64,000 nucleotides of DNA from an uncultured virus (IMG/VR IMGVR_UViG_3300034375_008561) (IMGVR_UViG_3300034375_008561); one strand, 5' to 3'. Shown: positions 1,001-54,391, counted from the first letter of the stretch. Numbers and translations are program-made. The notes: generated by a model not told the origin, from the sequence alone.

Positions 1001-2115
1001 AATACTAAATCTTTAAAATTAAGGTATGATACTTTCTTTGCATCAAAGCTCTTCAATGTTGAAGTTATCCATAATATATCCTGTGTGTCCTCAAGGCATA
1101 ATATCCAAATAGTTGCTTCATAGTCTCCCTGTTCTAAGAGAGTCCTAGCAATTTTCTGAGATGTTAGTCCATTGTTATCAGAATCAACCTGAGTTAGGAT
1201 GAGGTTATCAATTGCAGAATAGGTATACCCTGTTCCACCCTTGTTCACCATTGCAATCCTATTAACTTCGCCATTTATGAACTTTTGAAGGTCCTTACTA
1301 TTTGTGGTACCGTGGTACACATAGTCTGACAGCTCTTCAGCCTGTTTCCTGTCCATTGCAAAGATTAATTTCGTACCTTCAAGAGAATTAATGATATACT
1401 TAGCTGCAGCCACTTTGGATGGTGACTTACCTATAAGTCTTCTCCTGTGTAGCAATGCAAACTTAGTTTTACCATTTCTCTCCATCCTCCTGGTCAAATA
1501 TTCATACTGCTTAAGTTCAGATGTAGTAAAACTCTTCTCTTGTTTGGTCACCTTATCAGTGTACTTCACTTCAATGTTCATTTTGTCATCCATAGGGATA
1601 CCAACAACCATGATTTTGTAGTTTGATAAGAGACCAATATCAACAGCTGAGTTAATAGAAATTTTATATAACTTCTTGAGTCCCAGCTGCTCATAGATAT
1701 CTGTCTTCGATTGTGTCTTACTCTCTGTCCCTGTCATCGATAGCAACACATCCCATGTTAAGCTTCCTTCTAATAGTCCTACTGCATTAACTGGTGTAAT
1801 AAACTGCTCTTCATCTAACACAATAAGTGCATAATGTCCTTTCAATTTATTTAAACCTTTCCAAGTACTAGTAGTTAGTTGCTTAAGATATGTTTTTGCT
1901 TTCCATTTTTCAAACTCAAGAGGTATATCCTCATCAGCTAGCTTAGATGTTGGTGTAACCCATAGGATTTTACCTTTTACCTTATGCTTTTTGATGTAAT
2001 CTATAACAATCTTGGTCTTTCCTGACCTAGGAGCTAAGATAAGCCTACCAGATTCTCCAGCAGGGATAGAATTCACAACATCTTTCTGTAATTCATTCTT
2101 TTCTTTACTTGTCAT
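997..2115 (-). CDS. superfamily 2 helicase/ATPase
   Basis: Walker A LAPRSGKT, motif II VLDEEQ, motif III SMTGT, C-terminal QKIARTL. Probable start at ATG 2115 (MTSKEK). Confidence 0.8.
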   Translation of the reverse strand: MTSKEKNELQKDVVNSIPAGESGRLILAPRSGKTKIVIDYIKKHKVKGKILWVTPTSKLADEDIPLEFEKWKAKTYLKQLTTSTWKGLNKLKGHYALIVLDEEQFITPVNAVGLLEGSLTWDVLLSMTGTESKTQSKTDIYEQLGLKKLYKISINSAVDIGLLSNYKIMVVGIPMDDKMNIEVKYTDKVTKQEKSFTTSELKQYEYLTRRMERNGKTKFALLHRRRLIGKSPSKVAAAKYIINSLEGTKLIFAMDRKQAEELSDYVYHGTTNSKDLQKFINGEVNRIAMVNKGGTGYTYSAIDNLILTQVDSDNNGLTSQKIARTLLEQGDYEATIWILCLEDTQDILWITSTLKSFDAKKVSYLNFKDLVL

Positions 2116-2494
2116 TTTTGTAAAAATTCTTAAATTTAACCTCACTTTGCATATACCAATCAGACCTTAAGTATTTAGGAAGATTTTGGATACCTTCTAA
2201 TCTTGCTATCTCCTCTTGCATTGCATCCTTTTTTTCTTTAAACCTTACTAATTTGTCACAGTCATAGTTTAGTATAGTTTCATACATTCTTCTAACAATA
2301 GTATCAACATTATGCATCAGCTTGCTATCATAATTAACAAAATTATATCTCATAGTCCTGGCAGTGTCTTCTATAAGATATCCGATTTCATTTTGAATAG
2401 TACATATCTCATATTCTATATTAGCATTGTTTGCTTTAAATGTAGAGTCCCAAAATTTTCCTTTGTTATCTATATATCCACATGTCTTTTTCAT
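2105..2494 (-). CDS. hypothetical protein
   Basis: 129-aa ORF in operon context. Confidence 0.65.
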   Translation of the reverse strand: MKKTCGYIDNKGKFWDSTFKANNANIEYEICTIQNEIGYLIEDTARTMRYNFVNYDSKLMHNVDTIVRRMYETILNYDCDKLVRFKEKKDAMQEEIARLEGIQNLPKYLRSDWYMQSEVKFKNFYKNDK

Positions 2495-8203: not shown

Positions 8204-8220
8204 TATTCATTTATTTTTAG

Positions 8221-8618
8221 TGGAGACGCTGGGACTCGAACCCAGGTCTTTCACATATCAATAATAATATTTTATACAGCTTCACGTTTCTTTAAATTCT
8301 TTACGCTAGATTAGGACCAACTGTTAAGTTGATGCTCCACCAGATTGTTTTTTTTATCACAGACAGTAACAATCAAATCTATCTGTTGCATAATCTTAGC
8401 TTATGCTGCTATTAAAACTTGACCTCCCATGGTATCTTGCGATACACCTTGGAAATCATTAAGAATGTTGTGAACAACACTCATGTTAGCTTCAATCTGT
8501 GCAGTTTCCTGCGTACTAGTTGTGTTTCCATTTAAGTAAACTCACCTTAGTTTTAGACAGTTATCTCTCTGTGCTGAATATTATTAAATCGCTATGAAAT
8601 CAATTCCATGTCGTCCCC
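8221..8618 (-). ncRNA. ssrA: tmRNA (transfer-messenger RNA), 398 nt, CCA not encoded
   Basis: 5' GGGGACG pairs with 3' CGTCTCC-A, giving a G3.U70 alanine identity pair. T-arm CTGGG-TTCGAGT-CCCAG. Helix 2 TAATAATATT/AATATTATTA and CAGC/GCTG. Tag frame at 8529-8401 ends GCA GCA TAA. Confidence 0.95.
8401..8529 (-). other. tmRNA tag reading frame (A)GNTTSTQETAQIEANMSVVHNILNDFQGVSQDTMGGQVLIAA*
   Basis: Resume context TTAAAT-GGA, then 42 open codons ending in LIAA-stop. Confidence 0.75.
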
Positions 8619-13572: not shown

Positions 13573-13864
13573 AATTAAGATTTTGGCTATTAATACTAAA
13601 AAATATTGGCTACACACTCATACCAATAGACATCATTACAGTGAACCACAAAGGGCTGATGACTTTATCACTGCAACGTAGTGTGCTTAGCTTTGATAGA
13701 ATATCTTCTACAATCGCAAGTGATATATTTGTAGCTGCTGTTATACAACTTTAAGTGACTCATTCACTAGGTAGGTCACGCTACAAATACTATGTTTTAT
13801 TCATCCCAATTAGTACTTAGTGCTATTATGACACCTACTATTAAAACTGCTATTATTGTTGGAC

Positions 13865-14056
13865 TCATATTATATCGAATTCAGCTTGGATACTACCGTT
13901 AATCAAGTTAAATTGCTCAATAAACTTTAAGTTTCCGTGCTTGTTAAGTATGCTCTTTACCTCGTGATTCCATTGTACAATCACTGATATCCTACCTTTA
14001 AAAGGTGTTCTCACAAAAAATCTCTTTGATAAACTCTTTATTAAACTGTCCATCAC
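13865..14056 (-). CDS. hypothetical protein
   Basis: 63-aa ORF coupled to upstream ORF. Confidence 0.55.
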   Translation of the reverse strand: MMDSLIKSLSKRFFVRTPFKGRISVIVQWNHEVKSILNKHGNLKFIEQFNLINGSIQAEFDII

Positions 14057-14241
14057 ATCGGTATTATTAAATTATGGACAGCAATAGTGTTACAATCTAT
14101 AGCATCATGATAATCAGCCTGTGTGTTATCTATAACAACAAGCTCGTTATCTTTATCTATAATTATAGTAAGGTCAAAATATACCTCTACCAATTCTTCT
14201 GGTAATGCATCTCTCGTTATTATTCTAGGTTCTACTTTCAT
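14053..14241 (-). CDS. hypothetical protein
   Basis: 62-aa ORF with AT-rich leader. Confidence 0.6.
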   Translation of the reverse strand: MKVEPRIITRDALPEELVEVYFDLTIIIDKDNELVVIDNTQADYHDAIDCNTIAVHNLIIPM

Positions 14242-14257
14242 ATTATTTTATGTAAAA

Positions 14258-14508
14258 AGTTAAACATTTTGCTATTTCCTTCACGAATTATCTTGTGCCA
14301 CTGACCTACCACATGGTCCTAAGTGTTTAATTAACCCAACAGCTCGTGCCTTAATGGTTAAATGCATTTTACAGTCTCTTCTTGAAGGTTAGTATAATTG
14401 AGATTCACCCCTAAATAGCCTTAAACAAATGGGTTAAAGATGTTGTTATCTAAATATGATGCTCTGCTTTTTATGAGCCCTGTACTTCATAAAACAAAAT
14501 GTTCAACT
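14258..14508 (-). ncRNA. candidate structured RNA element (~250 nt)
   Basis: 14-bp closing helix 14258-14271/14495-14508 (G.U on minus strand) enclosing nested helices. No ORF. Confidence 0.55.
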
Positions 14509-14538
14509 ATTTAAGTATTTTATAATTAAATTTATACC

Positions 14539-15118
14539 CTGAGTGATGAGGTATTATACTGTCATTTTCAAGTCGTTTCCAACCTTGACACACACTTGAT
14601 GTAACTCCAAGTATACAGCATATTCACGAGTTGAGATGCTCGTCATCTTTACATTACAATATCATAAGATTACTTTCACACCACACTCTCTGTCGAGATT
14701 CACAGAGTACCCTCTGTTATGTAGATGCTACTAACTCTCTTTATCATGGTACTTGGAAGCACCTTAGACATCTCCATATCACAGAAGAATAAGAATATTT
14801 TAATCGTAATGTCTTAGCCTATTTTTCCTTTATCTTTAGTTTGATTTAGGAAACAGGTGAATAACTGAAGTTAGGATAAGTCTTGTTATCATGCTACCTT
14901 TTGAGTAGTTTAGATAAGACTTCAGTCTGCTTTTAGCTTGTCATGGCTTACTAACTGTTTAAATGCTAATGCTTTGTATTTCTACGCCCACATCTGTACA
15001 CTAAACTAATAACAACTCCGTCCCTGACAAGGACTACCATCATTATCTATCATATATCTTATTGTAATTTCTTACTCAACCACTTGCCTGTCAAATGGTT
15101 ATTAACGCTATCACTCAG
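14539..15118 (-). ncRNA. candidate large ornate structured ncRNA (580 nt)
   Basis: End-pairing CTGAGTGAT/ATCACTCAG, more than ten mutually compatible nested helices, complementary hairpin loops, no ORF of 60 aa or more. Confidence 0.7.
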
Positions 15119-15431
15119 TAGAGCCTTGCCACGTTAATAATAATATGATACCTTTCTATGGATTGGTGTGCATACGCAACCAACACAATCTGCTTTTCTT
15201 AATAAACAAATCATTTTATACCATTACTGGTTTATCCTTTTACACCTAAGGTGTGTAGTTATGAAGGCTAACTACTTCCTAAGCACAATGCTTAGTCTAT
15301 CTTCATTGGTGAGAAGTACTGTCTATGATTTCTCATGACAGATACTCCTACCAAATATTTCTTGCTATCATTATCAAATGATGCTTGCTCTTTTTTCAAA
15401 TCTTCTAAAAACTGTTCTTTTGCTGACATAA

Positions 15432-15854
15432 TTATTCTTGTATTTCTCCAAAGATTATTATTTCGATTTCTTGCCATGTATAACATTCTTTAAGGTCTGT
15501 GTTTAATGCACGTTCCTCAATCATATCAATGGTATTCATTGCTTTTTGTAATCCATAAGTGTTATGATTATGATAACACATCTCTTGGTACATATTAATT
15601 GTTTCGTCAACTAATGTATAAAGTATAACATCAGGGTCTTCATCTTCATTGTAGTATTCTACTTCAACAAATATCCAATCATCTTCTGAATCATCTAATG
15701 AATCATATATAACTTTAACTCCACCATCAACATGCTCTAATGTGATTTCACAACAGTTAGCATTGTTATGTTGATGAGGTTCACTTCTATTAGCCCAAGC
15801 AATTGTAAATATACATAGACTAATTACTAATAAAATAGGATATAAGTTTTTCAT
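15432..15854 (-). CDS. hypothetical secreted or membrane-anchored protein
   Basis: N-terminal hydrophobic signal, acidic body. Confidence 0.7.
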   Translation of the reverse strand: MKNLYPILLVISLCIFTIAWANRSEPHQHNNANCCEITLEHVDGGVKVIYDSLDDSEDDWIFVEVEYYNEDEDPDVILYTLVDETINMYQEMCYHNHNTYGLQKAMNTIDMIEERALNTDLKECYTWQEIEIIIFGEIQE

Positions 15855-15882
15855 AATGTTTGGTTTTAATAATGTTGATTAA

Positions 15883-16053
15883 TTATAATGTGTTATTTGT
15901 CTGATATTCTTTACCATTAATACTCCAAATTATAGAATATTCACCTGCATCATTAGCTCCTGACTGACCCACAAACTGTGGATTCATATCAATAGCATAT
16001 AACTCTGTTGGTGTGACTAGAGTTCTTTCTGGGGTAAGTGTTACATGTGCCAT
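15883..16053 (-). CDS. hypothetical small protein (56 aa, not in ORF track)
   Basis: MAHVTLTPERTLVTPTELYAIDMNPQFVGQSGANDAGEYSIIWSINGKEYQTNNTL*. Confidence 0.55.
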   Translation of the reverse strand: MAHVTLTPERTLVTPTELYAIDMNPQFVGQSGANDAGEYSIIWSINGKEYQTNNTL

Positions 16054-16153: not shown

Positions 16154-16256
16154 TACACAATCCCTTAAAATATTCATAAAAAACAACCTAAAAGCTGTTA
16201 AATATAAATAATAATCAACATTACTAACCAAAATCAACCAATTATTCTCAATTAAG

Positions 16257-16293
16257 GGTTAAGATGTGCTACTATTGTTCACACATCTTAACC
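16257..16293 (-). terminator. 12-bp hairpin downstream of 16308-16580
   Basis: GGTTAAGATGTG / CACATCTTAACC. Confidence 0.55.
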
Positions 16294-16307
16294 AGGACAA
16301 GTCACTA

Positions 16308-16580
16308 TTAGATAGTAACTTCTGCAGGAGAATATTTCACTACACGATATGCAGTGTAATCTCCTTGCTCACCAGTTCTTGTCTCAGTCTGAAGACCAAG
16401 ACTTGAAATGTTGGCATCTGCTTGTAGTTCACCTACAAGGTCCTTATGGATACTAACAGCAACTCTGTTGTCATTATCCCAATGACGCATCCACTCTGTG
16501 GCATTCCCGTCACTATCCTTGGCAGTGTTTAGCTCCAACTTTGGAACACCAATCTTACCTTTAATATCAGTTAAAGTCAT
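16308..16580 (-). CDS. 90-aa early protein, paralog A
   Basis: 65/90 residues identical to 17098-17370 (manual count). Confidence 0.85.
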   Translation of the reverse strand: MTLTDIKGKIGVPKLELNTAKDSDGNATEWMRHWDNDNRVAVSIHKDLVGELQADANISSLGLQTETRTGEQGDYTAYRVVKYSPAEVTI

Positions 16581-16664
16581 AAGGCTTTATCAGGTATTAA
16601 TAATTCTGTGGCAATATCGCCAATACTTACCATCTCCTTAATAAACATAATTAGGGGATAGCAA

Positions 16665-16682
16665 GAATAAGTGAGGGTGTTG
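16665..16682 (-). promoter_or_regulatory. 18-nt repeated motif copy 1, putative phage promoter
   Basis: GAATAAGTGAGGGTGTTG on plus strand, 84 nt upstream of ATG 16580. Confidence 0.65.
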
Positions 16683-17010
16683 CAGTAGGGCTTTTATACC
16701 CTAATAACCCACTTTAGGTAAATTACATACTCGTGAGGTGAATCACCCAAATCACTTAAATATATAAGAGGAGCTAGCAACCCACTTAAGCGTTGCTATG
16801 TCTGCTCCAATAAGACCTGAGTAACTACTTCCCTTCTTCATGTGGTCTCAACACTAGTACCTGTCACAGTACTCGTACCTTTATATAGTTATGGTGCAAT
16901 AGCAGAGCTTGGGTCTTGAGTTGTAATTAAGTAGCACTGCCAAATCTGGAAGCCTACACACTCTGCTATTATACCCTAATATCATAATTAAAAAAAGAAA
17001 ATGAATGCAG

Positions 17011-17028
17011 GAATAAGTGAGGGTGTTG
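17011..17028 (-). promoter_or_regulatory. 18-nt repeated motif copy 2
   Basis: Identical GAATAAGTGAGGGTGTTG. Confidence 0.65.
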
Positions 17029-17097
17029 AAGGGAGGAGTGGAGTCAGTAAATGGCTCGAACCAGAATGCTTTCGCATCCTGGTTCTCGCCAAGCACA

Positions 17098-17370
17098 CTA
17101 CAGAGTCGTCTCTGCAGGTGCATACTTCACAATCCTGTAGGCAGTGTATGAACCCTGCTCTCCAGTCCTGGTTTCAGTCTGTAGACCCAAACTGTTCAGG
17201 TTCTTGTCAGACTTGATTTCAGCCACAAGGTCCTTATGGATTGAGACTGCTTCTCGTTCCTCATTGTTCCAGTGTCTCATCCAGTCTGTTGCGTTACCAT
17301 CTGCGTCCTTTGCAGTGTTAAGTTCAAGAGTGATAAGTCCAAGTTTCGCTTTGATTTCGGTAATAGTCAT
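17098..17370 (-). CDS. 90-aa early protein, paralog B
   Basis: Paralog of 16308-16580. Confidence 0.85.
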   Translation of the reverse strand: MTITEIKAKLGLITLELNTAKDADGNATDWMRHWNNEEREAVSIHKDLVAEIKSDKNLNSLGLQTETRTGEQGSYTAYRIVKYAPAETTL

Positions 17371-17431
17371 AATATTGGTGCGTACATTTCTCGCCAGAGT
17401 TAGTGGAGTATGCTGAATTGCACATCTCCGT

Positions 17432-17449
17432 GAATAAGTGAGGGTGTTG
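17432..17449 (-). promoter_or_regulatory. 18-nt repeated motif copy 3
   Basis: Identical GAATAAGTGAGGGTGTTG, 61 nt upstream of ATG 17370. Confidence 0.65.
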
Positions 17450-17883
17450 CATTAGGCTAATAGCACAATGATTGACAACAAGATGTTGAGTCTTGTTGTT
17501 TCATTGTCACTGACTAGACATCAAAGACATCAAGGTCTACACCTGAGTCTTCCATGTCTTGCATTGCAGCACGTTTTGCTACACGCAGGTCAGCTCTTTC
17601 CATCATTGTTGATAGGTATGGCATAACACATAGAGTATTAATGAGCTCCCAGGATTAATCTCGTCAAGAGTTTGGTAGGGGGGAGTTTCCCTTTCCAAAA
17701 ATGAGTGGGGGTTTTGTATAAGGTAGTCTACACACTCACAGATTTTCAATTATTTTACCCTTCAATAAATTTTTTCCAGAAATTTTTTTAGCTTAGAGTG
17801 ACATATGTGTATATCTTTTTCAAATTTTGTATACATATATGTGTAGAAAACCCTATCTTTGTAGACTTAAATACTTAACAGTT

Positions 17884-30675: not shown

Positions 30676-32157
30676 ATGGCAACTAAAATTAACAAATTGC
30701 AGGTAAGACAAGCCAAGTTTAATTCCACTAGGATGACTGACTTAAACCACTGGAGTAACCAGTTGGCTATCAAACCTACTGTCTTTGAGGCACCAACAAG
30801 AGCAATCTTTGCATCAAAAACAAATAGCCTAAATCTTTCCTCTGGTAATGTATTGGAAGGTATCTTCGGGCTAGGAAAAACGAAGTATATTGATGACCTT
30901 AACTGGTCATGGAAAATGAAAGTTAAAGGATTCCGTCCTATGACTATCATTGAGAACAGAACAGCTGGAAACACTCCAGGTAAATATCGTGGAGACATCG
31001 AAGTATTAGTAGATGTTGACCTATTTGCTATTGGTGAATCAATTGGACCTGGTTCCTCTGACAAGTCTCAAGTGGTAACTGTAACTAATAAGACTAAAGA
31101 GGGAGCTCGTGGATTCGTGTATACCTTAAAGACTTATACTGAAGGTGCAGAGCATTTTATCAATCCTAAGTACCTTAAGCCAGGAACTAAATGGACTCGT
31201 ATGTTTACCATGCGTGGTGAAGCTGCAGAAAGTGGGTCTCACACTGAGAACTACACTAATGTAGAGTACAAAAACTCATTGGTTAAACTTCGTAAGGAGT
31301 ACAAAGTAACTGATTTCGCTGCACAAGCAGTGGTTGAAATTGCTTTCCAAGATGATGAGGGTGGAGTACACAAATCATGGATGGACAAACAAGAAGCTGA
31401 TTACTACATGGCAATGAATAAAGAAATGGCAACATTTGCTCTTTATTCTCGTTTAGGTGACCAACCTCTTATCGACCCAGATTCAGGATACCCAATCAAT
31501 CCAGGTGCTGGTATGGAGCAACAAATTGGTTTTGGTGGAAATGTAGAGCGTTATACTACAATGTCTGCTGAGCTAATTGAAGCTTTCTTTGATAGAATCG
31601 TATACTCTAGAATAAATCCAGGAGATTTAGGAGAAGTTATGGGATTATCAGGTCATTATGGAATGAAAGAGTATGCTAAAGCATTAGATACTTGGACAGG
31701 TGGTAAAGCTATTGTTCGTGAATCTTCTACCTTTATTAAAGGTACTGAAGGTATGAGTAATAACTCACTAAGAACTGGTTATCAGTTTGTAACTTATGAC
31801 CTACCAACAGGTGGTTCATTCAAGTTAGTTCATAATGCTATGAATGATGATAAGTCTATTCACCGTGATATTGACCCATTAACTGGTGTTCCATTACAAT
31901 CACAGCGAATTACTATCCTTGATGTAACAGGTGGTAATGGTGATAGCTTAGCTAAAGATAACATTTGCTTGGTTCGTAAGAATAAAGTATATGGTAGCAC
32001 ACGAATTTTAGGACGAGTTGGACCAGGTGGTGTAAGTACTGGAGACAGAGCTACACACTCAGGAGATTACTACGAAGTACATATCTCAGATAGTATCGGA
32101 GTACAAATTACTGACTCAACTGTAACTGGGGAACTAGTTAAATCAGTGAATGAATAA
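30676..32157 (+). CDS. major capsid protein
   Basis: 493 aa in the crAss-like TerL-portal-scaffold-MCP order. YPINPGAGMEQQI, FKLVHN..DD, DPLTGVP, HSGDYY. Confidence 0.88.
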   Translation: MATKINKLQVRQAKFNSTRMTDLNHWSNQLAIKPTVFEAPTRAIFASKTNSLNLSSGNVLEGIFGLGKTKYIDDLNWSWKMKVKGFRPMTIIENRTAGNTPGKYRGDIEVLVDVDLFAIGESIGPGSSDKSQVVTVTNKTKEGARGFVYTLKTYTEGAEHFINPKYLKPGTKWTRMFTMRGEAAESGSHTENYTNVEYKNSLVKLRKEYKVTDFAAQAVVEIAFQDDEGGVHKSWMDKQEADYYMAMNKEMATFALYSRLGDQPLIDPDSGYPINPGAGMEQQIGFGGNVERYTTMSAELIEAFFDRIVYSRINPGDLGEVMGLSGHYGMKEYAKALDTWTGGKAIVRESSTFIKGTEGMSNNSLRTGYQFVTYDLPTGGSFKLVHNAMNDDKSIHRDIDPLTGVPLQSQRITILDVTGGNGDSLAKDNICLVRKNKVYGSTRILGRVGPGGVSTGDRATHSGDYYEVHISDSIGVQITDSTVTGELVKSVNE

Positions 32158-47646: not shown

Positions 47647-48564
47647 ATGAGCGAACTTAAATTTGTAACAATAGATAGAATACTTGCAAAGCTCAACAGA
47701 GATTTGAAAGGTTCATTGCTAAATGAGGGAGACGTTATTGAAATGATAGGTGAATCCCTTGAATTCCTTAAGGTCCCACAGGTATTAGAACAGTCAGTAG
47801 CCTTTTTAAAAGTAGAAGACTATCATGCTGTTATACCTGATGGTTTGCACATGGTAACACAAATAGCTAGAAACAACAAACCAACAGAATGTACTTGCCC
47901 AGCATCAGATGTATCTGCTGTGAGCACAGATGAAGAAGTTACTATACCAGTAAATGTTCCATGTGAATGTAACTTTACTTGCCCAGATAGGATACTAAAT
48001 CCTGACTGGACTTATGAGGTATGGACAAGCTCACCTGAATATGAAAGAAACTACTCTGTTGTTAGATTAGCCACAGGAACATTCTTTAACTCTTTGGTAT
48101 GCAAGGAGAAAGATGAGTCATTATATATGACCTGCGAGGATGAATACACAATAGTTGGAACAGTAGATAAGAGATTAAGATTTAATTTTATTGAAGGTCA
48201 GGTAGCAATAGCTTACTTGAGAAACACTATTGACCAAGAAACAGGCTATCCATTAGTACCTGAGCATATTTCTTATATCTCTGCAATCACTTATTACATT
48301 AAGTGGAAATTAGCTGAGATGTATGAGTGGGCTGGTAGAGATGGTTGGGCAGGCAAAGCTGACAAGGCTGAAGCTAGATGGATAAAATATGCAAGACAAG
48401 CTAAAAATGAAATGAAGATGCCAAAAACTCTAGACCAATACCAGAACTTACTTGAGCAAACTCATCAATTAATACCAAACCACAGAAGATATTATGGTTA
48501 CTTTGGAAACTTAGGTAAAGACCAACCTAGAATTTATAATACATTAAACAAAGTCTATGGATAA
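47647..48564 (+). CDS. tail tubular/ring protein
   Basis: DQETGYPLVPE...AITYYIKWK, directly upstream of the muzzle gene. Confidence 0.65.
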   Translation: MSELKFVTIDRILAKLNRDLKGSLLNEGDVIEMIGESLEFLKVPQVLEQSVAFLKVEDYHAVIPDGLHMVTQIARNNKPTECTCPASDVSAVSTDEEVTIPVNVPCECNFTCPDRILNPDWTYEVWTSSPEYERNYSVVRLATGTFFNSLVCKEKDESLYMTCEDEYTIVGTVDKRLRFNFIEGQVAIAYLRNTIDQETGYPLVPEHISYISAITYYIKWKLAEMYEWAGRDGWAGKADKAEARWIKYARQAKNEMKMPKTLDQYQNLLEQTHQLIPNHRRYYGYFGNLGKDQPRIYNTLNKVYG

Positions 48565-51500
48565 GAATACTACACCTATCAAAGGGGGATTACATTTAGA
48601 TAATTCTCGTACTGATGTCCCAAAAGGGACATATCAATATGCATTAAATGCAGTAAATGAAACTGAGCAAGGTGACAACTCTTTTCTTTCAAATGAAGGC
48701 AGTAACACTCCTTGTGGACCTTTACCCTCTGGTTATATACCAATAGGTTCAGTCTACATAGGAAATAACAAAACTGCTATCTTTTCTATTAGTCAAGATG
48801 GCTCTACTAGCGAAATAGGTGTTAGAGATGAAGAATGTAATTATGTTACACACGTAAACGGAAACTTAGGGTTTAAAATTACACAGCAAATTGATGCAAC
48901 CTTCAGGTTGAGAAAAGGATGTGAAAGGACAATTTACTGGGTTGATGGTAAGAACAATAAACCAATGTATTATGTATTTGAGAAGCCTTGGCAATTCCAA
49001 ACTGATTTAGGGGCTTGGGATAAAAATAAATTTGAGCTCCAAAGGAGTTATGGGAAAGTACCTAGATTTCAAGAAGTTGAAGTTCTTAATTCTGGAGGAC
49101 AATTAGAGGCAGGTTCATATAATATAGGCATAAGATACAAAGATGAAAACTTAAATCCAACAGAATGGATTACTACATCTGAAGTAATTTTAGTATATAA
49201 CACTGACACTAATGAAGAGTATCTAGATATTAGTGGAAGTATAAATATAGAATCAGGAGCAGATATAGAAGATTATAGAGATTTTCCAACTACAGATAAA
49301 GCGATAAGAGTAGTGTTAGATAATTTAGATACTACTTTCTTATTTTATCAACTAGCATTTATAGAAGCAACAACAGGTAATGGACAGATTAGTGCTATAA
49401 AATATACAGAAGATATACCTATAGATAATAGTATCTTTATTTTTACAGGAGGAAATTTTAGTGTTAATGGTACAGAAGAAGAAATTAAAGCTGTAACAGC
49501 TATTATTGAATCAGCAGGGTCTATTGAGCAGGCAGACAATATGTTAATCTTAGGTAACACTCAAGGGAAACAAGTTAATTTCTGTAAGTTACAAAGATAT
49601 GCATCTAGGATTCAAGCAGATATGACAGTAAAAAATGTATTGTCTAATAACATGATAGACCCAGCAAATCCAAAAAGTCCTACAGCTAGATTTGAAGGAG
49701 TAGGATATATGCCAGGAGAAATATATTCTTTTGGTATTATCTATGTATTTAAAGATGGGTCTCAGTCTCCTGTATATCATATCCCTGGAAAAAGTAATAG
49801 TATACTGTCTCCATTAGGGGATAATGTTTCAGAAAATTATATATTTCAACCAGCTATTGGGCAAGAAATTTATCCTATGTCTATTGATAATGGAAGTTTG
49901 AATTCTAGATATAGTGATAATAGTACTTGTGAAGATGGAGATTTTTGGGGAGTTGATTCAATAGGAACTCCCTTAACAGGAAATTTGGTCAGACATCATA
50001 GATTCCCATTAAGGAGTGATATAGGTTTACCTTTAGTTAGTTTAGATACAGTAGAAGGTGGAGTAAGCACATATTATCAAATAAAATTAAGTGTTACAGG
50101 TACTATACTGTCTTCTTTTGTTTGTGATGCAACAGGTGTTTCAAATGGTGACTGCCTCTCTACAGAATTAGGATTACAAATTCCTTATGATATTTTTCAA
50201 GTTAGGATAAGTTTTGAGCATGAGGGACAACCTGATGAAATGATTGTTAATATAAATCCTTTAGATTACTTAGGTGTGGGAGATACAGCTACAATTGATT
50301 TAGCAGAATACTCAAACTATTTAATTACAAATGCAATCACTATCACAAACCTTCAAGAAAGTAAATATGATGGTACTGCTGTAAGTCTTGGTACCACTTC
50401 AGGAACTGGGGATGTAGAACATGGGTCATTATCCTACACTGTGGAAGTTGTTCCAGCAGAATTTAATTCAGAGACTCGTCTTTACTCTACAAAAATGTAT
50501 GGTATACAATTTTCAAATATCGATTTACCTACTGTTGAAGACACAGGAGGAGAAGAAATTATTGGATATTATATAGTTAGAAATGAAAGGACTGAGTTAG
50601 AAAAAACTATTTTAGATAGTGCTGTTCTTACTCCAACAGTTACAAATGACAAATATATTTCTCATGGATTAATGTTTCCTGAATTCAATGGGGCTCCTAG
50701 AGTGTCTCAGGAAGTTATGGGATTAATTCACCCTGAACATAAATTTCACAATAAAAAATATTCTGAGTATTCAGAAATGATTCAACAAGGTGGATTTAAA
50801 GTTATACAAAGAGAAAAAAGTAAAAGTAGATATTTAGATATTACTGATGGAACAACCTTTGACTCTTCTGTACACAAAGGAGGAGGTGGTCAAGATGATG
50901 ATGGATGGTCTTTAAAAGCTATTACTAGGGATAACATCACAGAATTTGTTACAGAGTATGATGAGTTTAATTATACAGAAGCAGAGATTGAAGACACTTT
51001 TTATTTAAAGGCTCTTCAAAGCAGAAATATACAAGCAGAAGAAAAGAAAGTATTTAATCTTGCAGGAGATAATAGAGTAGGTATTGTAGAGCTTGCAACA
51101 GGCACAAATGCATATATTACAGACACATTACCTTATGTCTATATTAAGCGACCAATAGCAGATTCATATTCCACATTTAGGTCTCTGCCTTATTATAAAA
51201 CAAGCATAAATATGCATGAATTTTATGATGCAGCAGGAGTCTATGACCCTGATAGTGATACTACTGTTGAGTTTGCAGGAGACACATATATATCCGCTAT
51301 GAGGTATGTCAACACAATGTGGTGGGATAACAGAGTGGCTAAAAGGGCTGGGAGAACATCAGTCTGGAGTTATATAATTGGTGCCATACTTATTGTGATA
51401 GGAGCTATTCTAACTATTTTTGGAGTAGGAGTCATAGTAATTGGACTAGGTATTGCAGTTCTTGGAGCTGGAGCATTATTTATTTCTTCAGGTATTGAAA

Positions 51501-54391
51501 GAGATGCTTTAGTAAGAGCATACTATGATGAGTATGATAAAGGGTTAAGAGAGACTACTTTAGATGATTGGGTAAGTAAAGAATATCAAGACTTACCTTG
51601 TGAAGGATATGGTAGAACAACATGTGATACACCTGAAGATGATGAAATAGAGTGGTTAGCAGATTGTGTAACAGATTTATGGTTTGAATCTCAAATTAAT
51701 ATATCTTTAAGGTACGGAATGACTTCTGGTGTTCCTACATTCCTAAATGCACCAGGTAAACTAGAATCAGGTAATACAGAGGTGGAACAAGCCTATGAAC
51801 ATTTTGATATCTATAAGCAGAGGGATGTTTCAATATATCCTTTTACAAAATTGGATAGACATGTTATGGATAAGCTTTTGGTATTTAGCCCTGAAAGAGG
51901 AGATAGCAGAGAATACATAGGACACCCATTAGGAGAATGGTATGAAATCAATCCTGATTATAAGAGAGAAAATCATGAAAAATCATACTTTCATTTGCCA
52001 ATTGAATATGATTGTTGTTCAGAATGTCAAGAGGATTTTCCTCACAGAATTCATAATTCTCAGCAATCATTCCAAGAAGAATTAACTGATAACTTCAGAG
52101 TGTTCTTACCTAATGATTATAGAGATATAGAAGGTGAGACAGGGCAGATTACAGATTTGTTTAGAATATCAAACAACATCTATATCCATACTGAAGAAGC
52201 ATTATGGCACCAACCTCAAAACTTCCAAGAAAGAGTTACAGGGGATATTGTGTCCTTCTTAGGAACTGGTGGTTATTTCAATATACCTCCAAGAAAAATA
52301 TTAGATGATAATAAAGCTTCTGCAGGGACTAGACATAGATGGGGAACTACAAAGACTAAGCATGGTGTATTCTTTGTCTCTGAGCAAGAAAACAAAATAT
52401 ACAATTTTGATGGGAATGCTTTAAATCCTATTTCTGATATAGGAATGTCCTCTTGGTTTAATAAGAATACAAAAATTAAATTACTAAGTGATTATTATGA
52501 TTCAGATGGTTCAGTATTTCCTTATGATAATAATCCTTCAAACCCTTATGGAGTTGGTTTTATTTCTGTCTATGACACAGAGAAAGAAAGAGTACTCTTT
52601 ACTAAAAAAGATAAAGTATTAAATGAAGCTTTACCAGCCAATGGGGACTATGAAATTTGTACTTTAGGTGGAGACCTCACTATATTTGAAGATATCAGTC
52701 AGACAATTGCAACTAGGGCTTTAGCTGGGTGGACATACACGGGTATAGAGGATTGTAGATTAAGATTTGAAAGGACTATTAATAATACACAAACTGTAAC
52801 AGGGCAAGTATTGCATTTAGAAACACTACCTACTACAGCTGATATTGTGGTACATTATGATACCTCTGGTTCTTTTACTCCAACAGCAAGAGCAGACATT
52901 AAAGCTGTTGTCGATGCATGGTTACTTACATTCCAAGCAAATAACCCAGGATGGGTTGGAAGTTTATACCATTTTGAAACGGGTTCTTCATCTGGAGAAG
53001 TTTGGATAAATGCACTTGATGAAGTATTAAATTCTCCATCTTTGCCTTTCCTTGCAAGACCTAATGATGAAATAGATATGGTAATGGTGTCTTTCACTAA
53101 TGAATCAGACCCACATTATCATTCTAATGTATTATCTAATCCTATGCAGTCTCCTCCTGCATTGTTTGATACTCATGCAGCTCAATTTAGACTCCAACAT
53201 GATACTTTAAAATCATTTAAAGGTTTATTATACCCTGTAGTATTTTCTACTGGTGGTGGCAGTGATGCTTCTACTAGAGTATTTTATCAAACTATGCTTG
53301 GAGCAATAAAAAATACAAATTATTCAACAGGAGAGACAGATGTTATCCCTGTAAATCCAGGTTTTTCTGCTCCAGACTGGGCTATATTAATAGGTTCTTT
53401 ACAAAATGCTATTGGTTATGCTCAATATGTTGGTTTTGAAAATTATGGTTGGAAAGTTGTTTATGATAGCTGGTGGGATGGTAATGTTTTAAACCCTATT
53501 GTAGATGAGGCTGAATTTAATACAAACATTGAGGAATTCTTAACAGGTACTCCTGTGGTATTATATGACAATCAAGATATAGAAATTAATGTACCTACAG
53601 TAGAAGTAGAATATGAAGATGGTATACCTACTGAGTTAGCACAAGGAGACCAATCTTGGACTATGAGTTATTCTTTAAAAGGTAAGTCATGGACTTCTTG
53701 GCATTCTTATTTACCTGACTTTTATTATTCAATAGCAGGTAAATTTTATTCCTGGATAAATGAGATTGATTTAGAATTCCCAAGACCAAATAGTTTTTAT
53801 AAACATAACGTGCATGCTCAGTACCAGAGATTCTATTATTCTCAGGTGCCTTTTATTGTAGAGTACACATCTTTATCAGACCCTATAAAAACTAGAGTAT
53901 GGGAGGATATTAAACTTCACACTGAGGCAAAGAAATGGGATGCAGTAAATGAAGAATACATAGACCAAAGATTTATAACTTTTAATAAAGCTATAATGTA
54001 TAACCACAGACAGTGTACAGGAGAGCTTATATTAGAGCCTAAGAGCACAGATGATGATAATGTAGACTACTTATTAGAGCAAGTAGTAAACAACCCAGGA
54101 CTCACCATCACAGTAGATAAGAATGAGGGAGATTGGTCTCTTAATGATATCAGAGACATTAGAGTAGATTATGACCAAACTATATTTGATTCTAATATAA
54201 TGTCACGCCAAAGTGATTACTATACGGACAAAATATTAAATGTTTCAGCTCTAGATGAAAATAAATCACCATGGGAACTTGAAAGTTTCAGAGGAAAATA
54301 TTTGGTAGTTAGGTTAATATTCGATAACTTTGATGACGTTAAGCTGATTATGAACTATTCTATTGAAACTGAACAGGTTACAGATGTTTAA
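48557..54391 (+). CDS. tail stabilisation/muzzle protein (1944 aa) with insertions
   Basis: GYMPGEIYSFGIIY, FLPNDYRD...GQIT, WTMSYS...WTSWHSYLPD, FRGKYLVVRL; synteny. Confidence 0.75.
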   Translation: MDKNTTPIKGGLHLDNSRTDVPKGTYQYALNAVNETEQGDNSFLSNEGSNTPCGPLPSGYIPIGSVYIGNNKTAIFSISQDGSTSEIGVRDEECNYVTHVNGNLGFKITQQIDATFRLRKGCERTIYWVDGKNNKPMYYVFEKPWQFQTDLGAWDKNKFELQRSYGKVPRFQEVEVLNSGGQLEAGSYNIGIRYKDENLNPTEWITTSEVILVYNTDTNEEYLDISGSINIESGADIEDYRDFPTTDKAIRVVLDNLDTTFLFYQLAFIEATTGNGQISAIKYTEDIPIDNSIFIFTGGNFSVNGTEEEIKAVTAIIESAGSIEQADNMLILGNTQGKQVNFCKLQRYASRIQADMTVKNVLSNNMIDPANPKSPTARFEGVGYMPGEIYSFGIIYVFKDGSQSPVYHIPGKSNSILSPLGDNVSENYIFQPAIGQEIYPMSIDNGSLNSRYSDNSTCEDGDFWGVDSIGTPLTGNLVRHHRFPLRSDIGLPLVSLDTVEGGVSTYYQIKLSVTGTILSSFVCDATGVSNGDCLSTELGLQIPYDIFQVRISFEHEGQPDEMIVNINPLDYLGVGDTATIDLAEYSNYLITNAITITNLQESKYDGTAVSLGTTSGTGDVEHGSLSYTVEVVPAEFNSETRLYSTKMYGIQFSNIDLPTVEDTGGEEIIGYYIVRNERTELEKTILDSAVLTPTVTNDKYISHGLMFPEFNGAPRVSQEVMGLIHPEHKFHNKKYSEYSEMIQQGGFKVIQREKSKSRYLDITDGTTFDSSVHKGGGGQDDDGWSLKAITRDNITEFVTEYDEFNYTEAEIEDTFYLKALQSRNIQAEEKKVFNLAGDNRVGIVELATGTNAYITDTLPYVYIKRPIADSYSTFRSLPYYKTSINMHEFYDAAGVYDPDSDTTVEFAGDTYISAMRYVNTMWWDNRVAKRAGRTSVWSYIIGAILIVIGAILTIFGVGVIVIGLGIAVLGAGALFISSGIERDALVRAYYDEYDKGLRETTLDDWVSKEYQDLPCEGYGRTTCDTPEDDEIEWLADCVTDLWFESQINISLRYGMTSGVPTFLNAPGKLESGNTEVEQAYEHFDIYKQRDVSIYPFTKLDRHVMDKLLVFSPERGDSREYIGHPLGEWYEINPDYKRENHEKSYFHLPIEYDCCSECQEDFPHRIHNSQQSFQEELTDNFRVFLPNDYRDIEGETGQITDLFRISNNIYIHTEEALWHQPQNFQERVTGDIVSFLGTGGYFNIPPRKILDDNKASAGTRHRWGTTKTKHGVFFVSEQENKIYNFDGNALNPISDIGMSSWFNKNTKIKLLSDYYDSDGSVFPYDNNPSNPYGVGFISVYDTEKERVLFTKKDKVLNEALPANGDYEICTLGGDLTIFEDISQTIATRALAGWTYTGIEDCRLRFERTINNTQTVTGQVLHLETLPTTADIVVHYDTSGSFTPTARADIKAVVDAWLLTFQANNPGWVGSLYHFETGSSSGEVWINALDEVLNSPSLPFLARPNDEIDMVMVSFTNESDPHYHSNVLSNPMQSPPALFDTHAAQFRLQHDTLKSFKGLLYPVVFSTGGGSDASTRVFYQTMLGAIKNTNYSTGETDVIPVNPGFSAPDWAILIGSLQNAIGYAQYVGFENYGWKVVYDSWWDGNVLNPIVDEAEFNTNIEEFLTGTPVVLYDNQDIEINVPTVEVEYEDGIPTELAQGDQSWTMSYSLKGKSWTSWHSYLPDFYYSIAGKFYSWINEIDLEFPRPNSFYKHNVHAQYQRFYYSQVPFIVEYTSLSDPIKTRVWEDIKLHTEAKKWDAVNEEYIDQRFITFNKAIMYNHRQCTGELILEPKSTDDDNVDYLLEQVVNNPGLTITVDKNEGDWSLNDIRDIRVDYDQTIFDSNIMSRQSDYYTDKILNVSALDENKSPWELESFRGKYLVVRLIFDNFDDVKLIMNYSIETEQVTDV
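54301..54332 (+). promoter_or_regulatory. Bacteroidota-type promoter for cargo genes, inside the muzzle 3' end
   Basis: TTTG-20 nt-TAACTTTG. Confidence 0.55.

Follow-up and report, generated by a model that had tools for sequence, protein, structure and literature searches.

GOLLD RNAs are among the largest and most elaborate RNAs of bacteria and phages, and they build nanocages free of protein. As described in PMC12286853, phages and prophages encode them, frequently in the vicinity of tRNA islands; many members exceed 800 nt, and expression rises during lysis. Conservation is universal in the 3' region and weaker in the 5' region, and a variable linker sometimes contains tRNAs (PMC12286853). 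The env-38 member assembles as a closed, D7-symmetric 14-mer 380 Å across, a cage held together by kissing loops and A-minor contacts in which the 5' portion supplies the cap and the 3' portion the ring, the linker lying inside (PMC12286853). ROOL, which is distinct from GOLLD in both sequence and fold, was solved as an 8-mer nanocage (PMC12286853).

The DNA analysed here is a stretch of 64,000 nucleotides from an uncultured virus (IMGVR_UViG_3300034375_008561), hereafter the window. On its minus strand, at 14534-15278, lies an RNA of about 745 nt which we consider to be a far-diverged member of GOLLD and, by homology, a probable RNA-only multimeric cage (probability roughly 85%). When 521 nt of the window were searched, the Rfam GOLLD model (RF02032) matched 14536-14924 on the minus strand with 41.4 bits (E 1.3e-9), covering model positions 1-416. 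Five of eight relatives match over the whole 416-position model, with scores of 77.2-117.8 bits and E-values from 1e-18 to 7e-31 (L005, 117.8 bits, E 6.7e-31; L008, 102.9; L061, 83.8; L022, 83.1; L046, 77.2); the other three tested (L006, L021 and L036) give no match at E ≤1. The window and all scored relatives thus lie below the 150-bit gathering score of Rfam, an operational cut-off rather than a biological trait, and for this reason routine annotation misses the clade, which is at the edge of what the curated GOLLD model can see.

Early negative results from Rfam were misleading since the speed filters made both searches miss GOLLD: the whole window at the gathering threshold yielded only a tmRNA and a chance snoRNA row, and 13800-15900 (2.1 kb) at E ≤10 yielded two chance rows. 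Whole-record contigs of L001, L006 and L021 were also without GOLLD at E ≤0.01, a kind of search that does not show absence. The first-pass annotation had suggested an Rfam scan and had offered two readings, a diverged member of the ROOL and GOLLD size class or a new class. Standard scans miss the family, while the search of 521 nt finds it below the gathering score; the GOLLD option of the first reading was right, as the full-model match to RF02032 shows, and matches at 41.4-117.8 bits speak against the second. The clade falls within the known GOLLD family and is no new category of RNA. ROOL, which we take to be Rfam RF03087, resembles the window RNA in being large, ornate and phage-borne, with kissing loops and pseudoknots, and its linker is disordered; however, neither the window RNA nor any of the eight relatives matched it in any Rfam search.

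The helices of the RNA had been derived from covariation before the GOLLD match was obtained, and they coincide with the structure line of the model, pseudoknot included. The UCAAAAG hairpin, the linker, helix P13, the GNRA hairpins, P20/P21 and the CUCAG-type terminal loop are all in register with it. The 3' architecture is accordingly that of GOLLD, with UCAAAAG in the first hairpin, a pseudoknot in the core, GNRA-capped hairpins and a CUCAG-type terminal hairpin, and the layout is also the same, a less conserved 5' region standing ahead of a conserved 3' region. Further points of likeness are the full length and significant E-value of the match of the 3' 390 nt, the terminal loop that pairs back, carriage by a phage, a 5' half that is variable and measures some 350-450 nt, a total length of about 0.75-0.85 kb, and relatives with tRNAs in or beside the RNA. 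The linker is variable and of about 41 nt in the window; in L061 a tRNA lies inside the linker of the GOLLD match and in L006 tRNAs lie about 450 nt downstream. The differences are that scores here are only 41-118 bits, under the gathering score, that the window RNA resides in a crAss-like phage without tRNA genes anywhere in its 64 kb, and that the cage is predicted by homology.

The crAss-like nature of the carrier, a freshwater phage, was already proposed in the first-pass annotation and is confirmed by Pfam matches in the window to Crass_capsid at 30676-32157 (E 2.2e-77) and to crAss_MUZ at 48557-54391 (E 2.4e-52). A Crass-type capsid gene is present in three of five further carrier contigs, the other two being estimated as 53% and 12% complete. 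One of the most abundant phage groups is thereby tied to a clade of at least 48 distinct sequences lying below the database threshold. In listings and abstracts of the literature no paper was found linking GOLLD, or any large non-coding RNA, to crAss-like phages, and the main text of PMC7886860 contains no occurrence of 'non-coding', 'noncoding' or 'ncRNA'.

The locus had been described as free of ORFs and this holds: short read-through frames excepted, 14242-15291 contains no ORF of at least 60 aa under table 11, TAG=Q, table 4 or TAA=Q. A recoded gene in this interval was rejected, as none of the three alternative codes (TAG=Q, table 4, TAA=Q) yields a long frame. The flanking genes, of 140 aa (15432-15854) and 62 aa (14053-14241), are both on the minus strand, as is the RNA, and a divergent switch between replication-side and structural gene blocks lies about 3 kb upstream of the RNA. 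Between the RNA and the 62-aa ORF is a non-coding tail (14242-14533, minus strand) that contains no ORF, aligns poorly and is not conserved with L001. The tail gave no Rfam match at E ≤10 save two chance-level rows and, unlike the corresponding tail of L005, no ribozyme match; in L005 a Pistol ribozyme (2164-2225, plus strand; 55 bits against a gathering score of 34.5) follows GOLLD after about 280 nt. None of 14 neighbour proteins was assigned a PHROG family, a 230-aa neighbour has no relatives among the viral contigs, the nearest record (G001) lacks the RNA region, and blastn of 14200-15350 against GenBank phages gave no match.

Two further features of the window may be recorded. The interval 16250-17750 has a G+C content of 0.40-0.48, compared with 0.27-0.35 around it, contains only small ORFs (80-90 aa) and adjoins both the divergent switch and the point at which cumulative GC skew is lowest. 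At 8218-8618 on the minus strand the full Rfam tmRNA model matches with 57.4 bits (gathering score 47, E 6.9e-20); ARAGORN reports no tmRNA in the window. The match suggests that the phage carries a tmRNA-like gene, about 6 kb downstream of that for GOLLD. In L022 a weak tmRNA-like row (27.2 bits, below the cut-off) lies about 800 nt downstream of GOLLD.

Homologues were reached through a relative of the 140-aa neighbour protein, which led to three viral contigs carrying a gene-free stretch with 66% identity to the window over about 600 nt. Scanning with an 18-nt invariant core gave 30 loci on viral contigs and with its 21-nt form 42 metagenome loci; an nhmmer profile built from the first alignment matched 21 of the former and all 42 of the latter, with E-values of 1e-30 to 1e-206. 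The same profile matched none of 48 bacterial and archaeal genome loci with the 18-nt core, and no copy was seen there. About half of these loci correspond to the 3'-terminal part of a coding gene in Campylobacterota, a coincidence, and they were rejected as members. Two Prochlorococcus single-cell assemblies, L078 (about 1498-1519, minus strand) and L085 (590-611, minus strand), contain the extended 22-nt GOLLD core TAAACTACTCAAAAGGTAGCAT, the rest of the RNA family being undetectable in either and model R1 giving no match. After removal of duplicates the set comprised 48 distinct sequences from viral and metagenome contigs, aligned with mafft L-INS-i. Distinct homologues are 46-62% identical to the window, and L067 is identical to it. 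In the most divergent members (L034-L038, L061 and L068-L075) the nhmmer profile matches the 3' part only; in the main clade about 110 nt of additional conserved sequence lie upstream, and the 5' extensions differ between clades.

Strand and extent were assessed by folding against shuffled sequences and by conservation. For 14539-15118, the minus strand gave a z-score of -2.83, with none of 100 shuffles as good, and the plus strand one of -0.68, with 25 of 100 as good; only the minus strand folds better than chance. The full minus-strand interval 14534-15278 has an MFE z-score of -2.81 (0/20 shuffles as good). The first-pass annotation had delimited the element as 14539-15118, had left its strand unstated and had called for a comparison of folding with shuffles. 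Folding is indeed better than chance, on the minus strand only, but the 5' boundary had been set about 160 nt short, as conservation and structure continue to about 15278. Conservation among homologues runs from the H1 hairpin to just past the terminal hairpin, placing the 5' end near 15278 and the 3' end at about the terminal hairpin. The 3' end is not fixed, because an RNA-library contig lies at 14299-14531, just downstream of that hairpin.

Covariation across the 48 distinct sequences is heavy, in agreement with what had been anticipated for homologues. Column pairs were ranked by G-test with average-product correction, and those at the top are nearly all canonical and stack into helices. 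RNAalifold applied to 21 sequences gave 77 pairs, 63 of which have at least one compensatory double change. The window sequence was folded with the family data as soft constraints, producing a model of 146 nested pairs; over the 48 sequences these are 84.5% canonical, compared with 65% in shuffled controls (0/300 as high) and 38-43% in slid ones, and double (compensatory) changes occur in 121. Canonical pairing in the 19 tertiary pairs reaches 92.5%, whereas shuffled controls give 76% and slid ones 32-44%. Alignment A4 of the 3' module, with 39 distinct rows, is 82.2% paired, against 64.1 ± 0.8% in shuffled (0/500) and 33-55% in slid controls, and its covariation score of 0.501 compares with 0.197 for shuffled alignments (0/500 as high). 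Five tertiary pairings hold: the P13/P14 pseudoknot, the kissing loop, and three designated PK-C, PK-D and PK-E. The divergence of the clade thus provides covariation for a kissing loop, a loop-strand pairing and two pseudoknots, which may be compared with the solved structure.

The fourteen helices of the first-pass annotation were projected on the 48 homologues and half of them survived. The seven kept, at 0.76-0.99 canonical, are ACGAG 14626/14639, ACAGAG 14702/14712, ACTGAAGT 14864/14919, TTATC 14886/14913, CTAC 14894/14905, which is invariant, GTCC 15020/15031 and the hairpin at 15078-15100, and six of these show compensatory changes. The seven lost, at 0.43-0.58, are the closing helix 14539-47/15110-18, TCAAGT 14568/14594, TCCAAGTA 14606/14750, AGCAT 14617/14725, AATAAGA(A)TAT 14788/15054, TTAGTTT 14836/15003 and AAACAG 14851/14955. 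With the closing helix (0.54 canonical over the 48 homologues) goes the 'end-paired' architecture that had been read from it: its 3' arm is in fact the conserved loop of the terminal hairpin, and a segment of its 5' arm (GAGU, 15116-15113) forms the local helix P6a with GCUC 15124-15121.

All features of the RNA lie on the minus strand, so that paired segments are given from high to low coordinates. The conserved 3' domain (14536-14924) aligns to the full RF02032 model, positions 1-416. It opens with the P12/P12a/P12b stem-loop (14863-14927), in which P12a is 0.98 canonical with all five pairs compensatory and P12 is 0.79 canonical. The hairpin CUAC-UCAAAAG-GUAG (14908-14894) lies inside a 22-nt core that is identical in 48 of 48 sequences, and in the alignment this hairpin falls on the one with UCAAAAG in the GOLLD consensus. 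There follows the variable linker (14822-14862), whose length and sequence both vary across the alignment. It is closed by PK-E, in which 14880-14872 pairs with 14821-14813 and for which at least 17 members keep 8-12 bp although their sequences there are unrelated. The length of the best duplex, averaging 9.2 against 8.4 in shuffled sequences, did not discriminate, and PK-E is supported by its fixed position and by the unrelated complementary sequences that fill it.

Next comes the pseudoknotted core (14620-14812), where P13 (14812-04/14659-51) crosses P14 (14798-93/14625-20) and which encloses P15 (14788-71), P16 (14770-42), P17, P18/a/b (14724-14681) and P19 (14643-26). P13 is 0.81 canonical with nine of nine pairs compensatory, and is the pseudoknot that Rfam brackets in the GOLLD consensus; P14 is 0.99 canonical and holds the top-scoring covarying pairs. 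An alternative stem GAUG/CAUC (14647-44/14638-35) was rejected, being only 58% paired. The 3' terminal module (14534-14620), for which pairs were counted on alignment A4 and model R1 scores 100.4 bits, consists of P20 (14620-14/14563-57), P21 (14613-09/14597-93), a GGAAAC hairpin (14585-70) and the terminal hairpin P22 (14554-49/14539-34) with its conserved loop CACUCAG. In PK-C the CAC of this loop (14545-43) pairs with GUG 14591-89; the interaction is 98.3% paired, one of its pairs occurring as six pair types.

The variable 5' domain (14928-15278) is outside the Rfam GOLLD model and contains helices P2-P11, which covary. It is rich in GNRA tetraloops and includes a covarying five-base loop-loop pairing. 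At its start is the H1 hairpin GUAGUUA-GCCUUCA-UAACUAC (15255-15275), with a stem 0.80 canonical, at least two pair types at each of its seven pairs, and a loop conserved as GCCUUCR across the family. The loop bases GCCUU (15268-15264) pair with AAGGU 15154-15150, within GAAAGGU, to form PK-D, which is 0.88 canonical with double changes in three of five pairs. The most conserved 5' box, GGAUAAACCA-GNRA-UGGUAUAAA (15214-15239), shows 91-96% identity by blastn. Within it is a 4-bp hairpin (15231-28/15223-20) capped by GUAA, GUGA or GCAA as the GNRA loop, its stem 0.94 canonical with three of four pairs compensatory. The same positions were considered as an extended -10 promoter, which the GNRA hairpin with its compensatory changes rules out.

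Downstream is a three-hairpin subdomain (15048-15150) closed by P5 (15150-43/15055-48) and comprising P6 (15139-31/15108-00), P6a (15124-21/15116-13), P7 (15099-92/15086-79) and P8, a GAAA hairpin (15075-72/15067-64). Its helices are 0.81-0.92 canonical with two to eight compensatory pairs each. P9 (15047-39/15016-08) and P9a (15034-30/15024-20), together at 15008-15047, are 0.85 and 0.77 canonical respectively. The P9a loop UGUCA (15029-15025) covaries with the loop UGACA (14943-14939) of hairpin P11 (14935-14948), the two forming a kissing interaction that is 0.86 canonical. A kissing loop between 14938-43 and 15025-30 had been predicted at the outset and is borne out by compensatory change: most members have GCCAA with UUGGC, while GUC with GAC is found in the window, L001/L002, L036 and L053, and a partial third variant in L046/L071.

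Taken together, the RNA is produced from the minus strand as a molecule of about 745 nt ending in the conserved hairpin, and folds into two domains, the variable 5' domain (15278-14928) and the conserved 3' domain (14927-14534) with every GOLLD consensus helix. Its terminal loop pairs back onto the GUGUGU strand of the 3' domain. On the model of the solved GOLLD structure (PMC12286853), copies of the RNA would assemble, without protein, into a closed multimeric shell in which the 3' domains form the ring and the 5' domains the cap, with the linker directed inward. Some of the covarying loop pairings may link copies; covariation cannot separate contacts within a copy from those between copies. 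Published ideas on the role of the GOLLD shell are that it holds tRNAs, ribosomes or other cargo during infection. A more specific proposal, which we make tentatively and regard as rather doubtful, is that the crAss-like clade constitutes a GOLLD lineage of its own, with a distinct cap, an inter-copy bridge formed by 15029-25 and 14943-39, a cage that departs from the env-38 14-mer in geometry or copy number, and an early, host-type promoter with a function in host take-over.

The argument for GOLLD membership has to be set against three other explanations. It might be supposed that the RNA belongs to a new large phage class that shares a few GOLLD motifs through convergence or module exchange, given that every score is below 150 bits, that several members go undetected by the GOLLD model, that the 5' domain has no catalogued counterpart and that the same short hairpin motif recurs in gut crAss-like phages, within a 2.1-kb RNA region that is otherwise unrelated. 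Yet the matches are not motif-sized but run the full length of the model (1-416) with E-values of 1e-9 to 7e-31, at least ten helices follow it in order and nesting, the pseudoknot also agrees, and so do the position of the linker and the association with tRNAs; we therefore consider a new class improbable. The possibility of an intron of group I or II, or of another known ribozyme missed by Rfam, is scarcely credible. No such family matches the RNA at E ≤10 and no host gene is split, the flanking ORFs being complete, differing between members, and ending 36-190 nt before the element or starting 290-475 nt after it. What might recall an intron or ribozyme is the abundance of GNRA tetraloops, the large-scale pseudoknot and a stretch UAUGG...CCUAAC in most relatives, which we presume to resemble the 11-nt tetraloop receptor. 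However, the helix order, A-B-[inner]-A'-hairpin-B', is unlike the P3-[P4-P6]-P7-P3'-P8-P7' of group I introns, and with neither an Rfam row nor an interrupted gene a group I intron was rejected.

If the RNA were a long structured leader or cis-regulatory region for the small genes that follow it, made only as part of an operon mRNA, this would explain why it shares the strand of its flanking genes, why an RNA-library contig is found between the terminal hairpin and the next gene, and why the hairpin of the window has no strong U-run. This reading is nevertheless very improbable: the RNA is conserved where the genes downstream of it change from member to member, a terminator-like hairpin immediately precedes it in L001, relatives carry U-runs after their terminal hairpins, and its architecture matches that of a known stand-alone RNA family. 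The terminator-like hairpin of L001, with its U-run, stands about 35 nt before H1, and U-runs after the terminal hairpin occur in several members, though the window lacks a good one. Together with promoter-like motifs upstream in four relatives, these features speak for the RNA being a transcription unit of its own in relatives.

Genomic context agrees with a fixed position for the GOLLD gene. In 14 carrier contigs examined with their flanks, the RNA is always on the strand of the flanking small genes and its region contains short spurious ORFs only. The upstream divergent switch, where in view, is 2-4 kb from the RNA, which thus lies 2-4 kb into the gene block leading away from the structural genes. 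Matches to TAnnTTTG, which we take to be the Bacteroidota -7 promoter motif, occur upstream of the RNA in L006, L023, L039 and L048, and from these promoter-like motifs in four relatives only, the hosts are probably Bacteroidota. The window itself shows no clear promoter upstream of the RNA, a sigma-70 scan showing none beside 15278, and the only terminator-like site near 15278 is a hairpin at 15279-15295 read on the plus strand.

RNA-library contigs from four metatranscriptome runs in four studies, labelled freshwater, lie on 14299-15278; they attest presence only, without strand, ends or abundance. One contig, from run X13, has its end at 15278, and a relative's version is also present in one of the runs. 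None was found on 13800-14298 or 15279-15900, which is no evidence that the flanks are silent. In run X12 a contig covers 14299-14531 of the non-conserved tail, and may represent read-through transcription, an independent small RNA or leader sequence of the following gene.

Lastly, human-gut crAss-like phages of the Suoliviridae/Loutivirinae (cr52_1, cr60_1, cr113_1, cr56_1, cr53_1 and cr4_1) contain a nearly gene-free region of about 2.1 kb (L124 2312-4420, corresponding to NC_055888.1 74203-76311, with matching parts of L125 and L146-L150). The seven records are 65-91% identical, one of them annotating a small opposite-strand gene inside the region; their longest stretches without a stop measure 68-131 aa, and reassigning any one stop codon opens no frame. 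RNAalifold gives 439 pairs, 93% canonical against 36-41% when slid, and 118 compensatory pairs against 17-27. As in the GOLLD core, both ACAGUGAG and the UACUCAAAAGGUAG hairpin are present, and there is a GCCAA loop whose partner is UUGGY, but the region is three times longer than the window RNA. It was rejected as GOLLD, having no GOLLD match, a profile match of at most 22 nt and a best E of 0.54 with R1. A separate observation concerns G004, the contig of L008/L129, in which a Crass-type capsid gene (C1:89886-91376, minus strand; 662.9 bits) is interrupted by seven in-frame TAG codons, which suggests TAG reassignment in the late genes of that phage.
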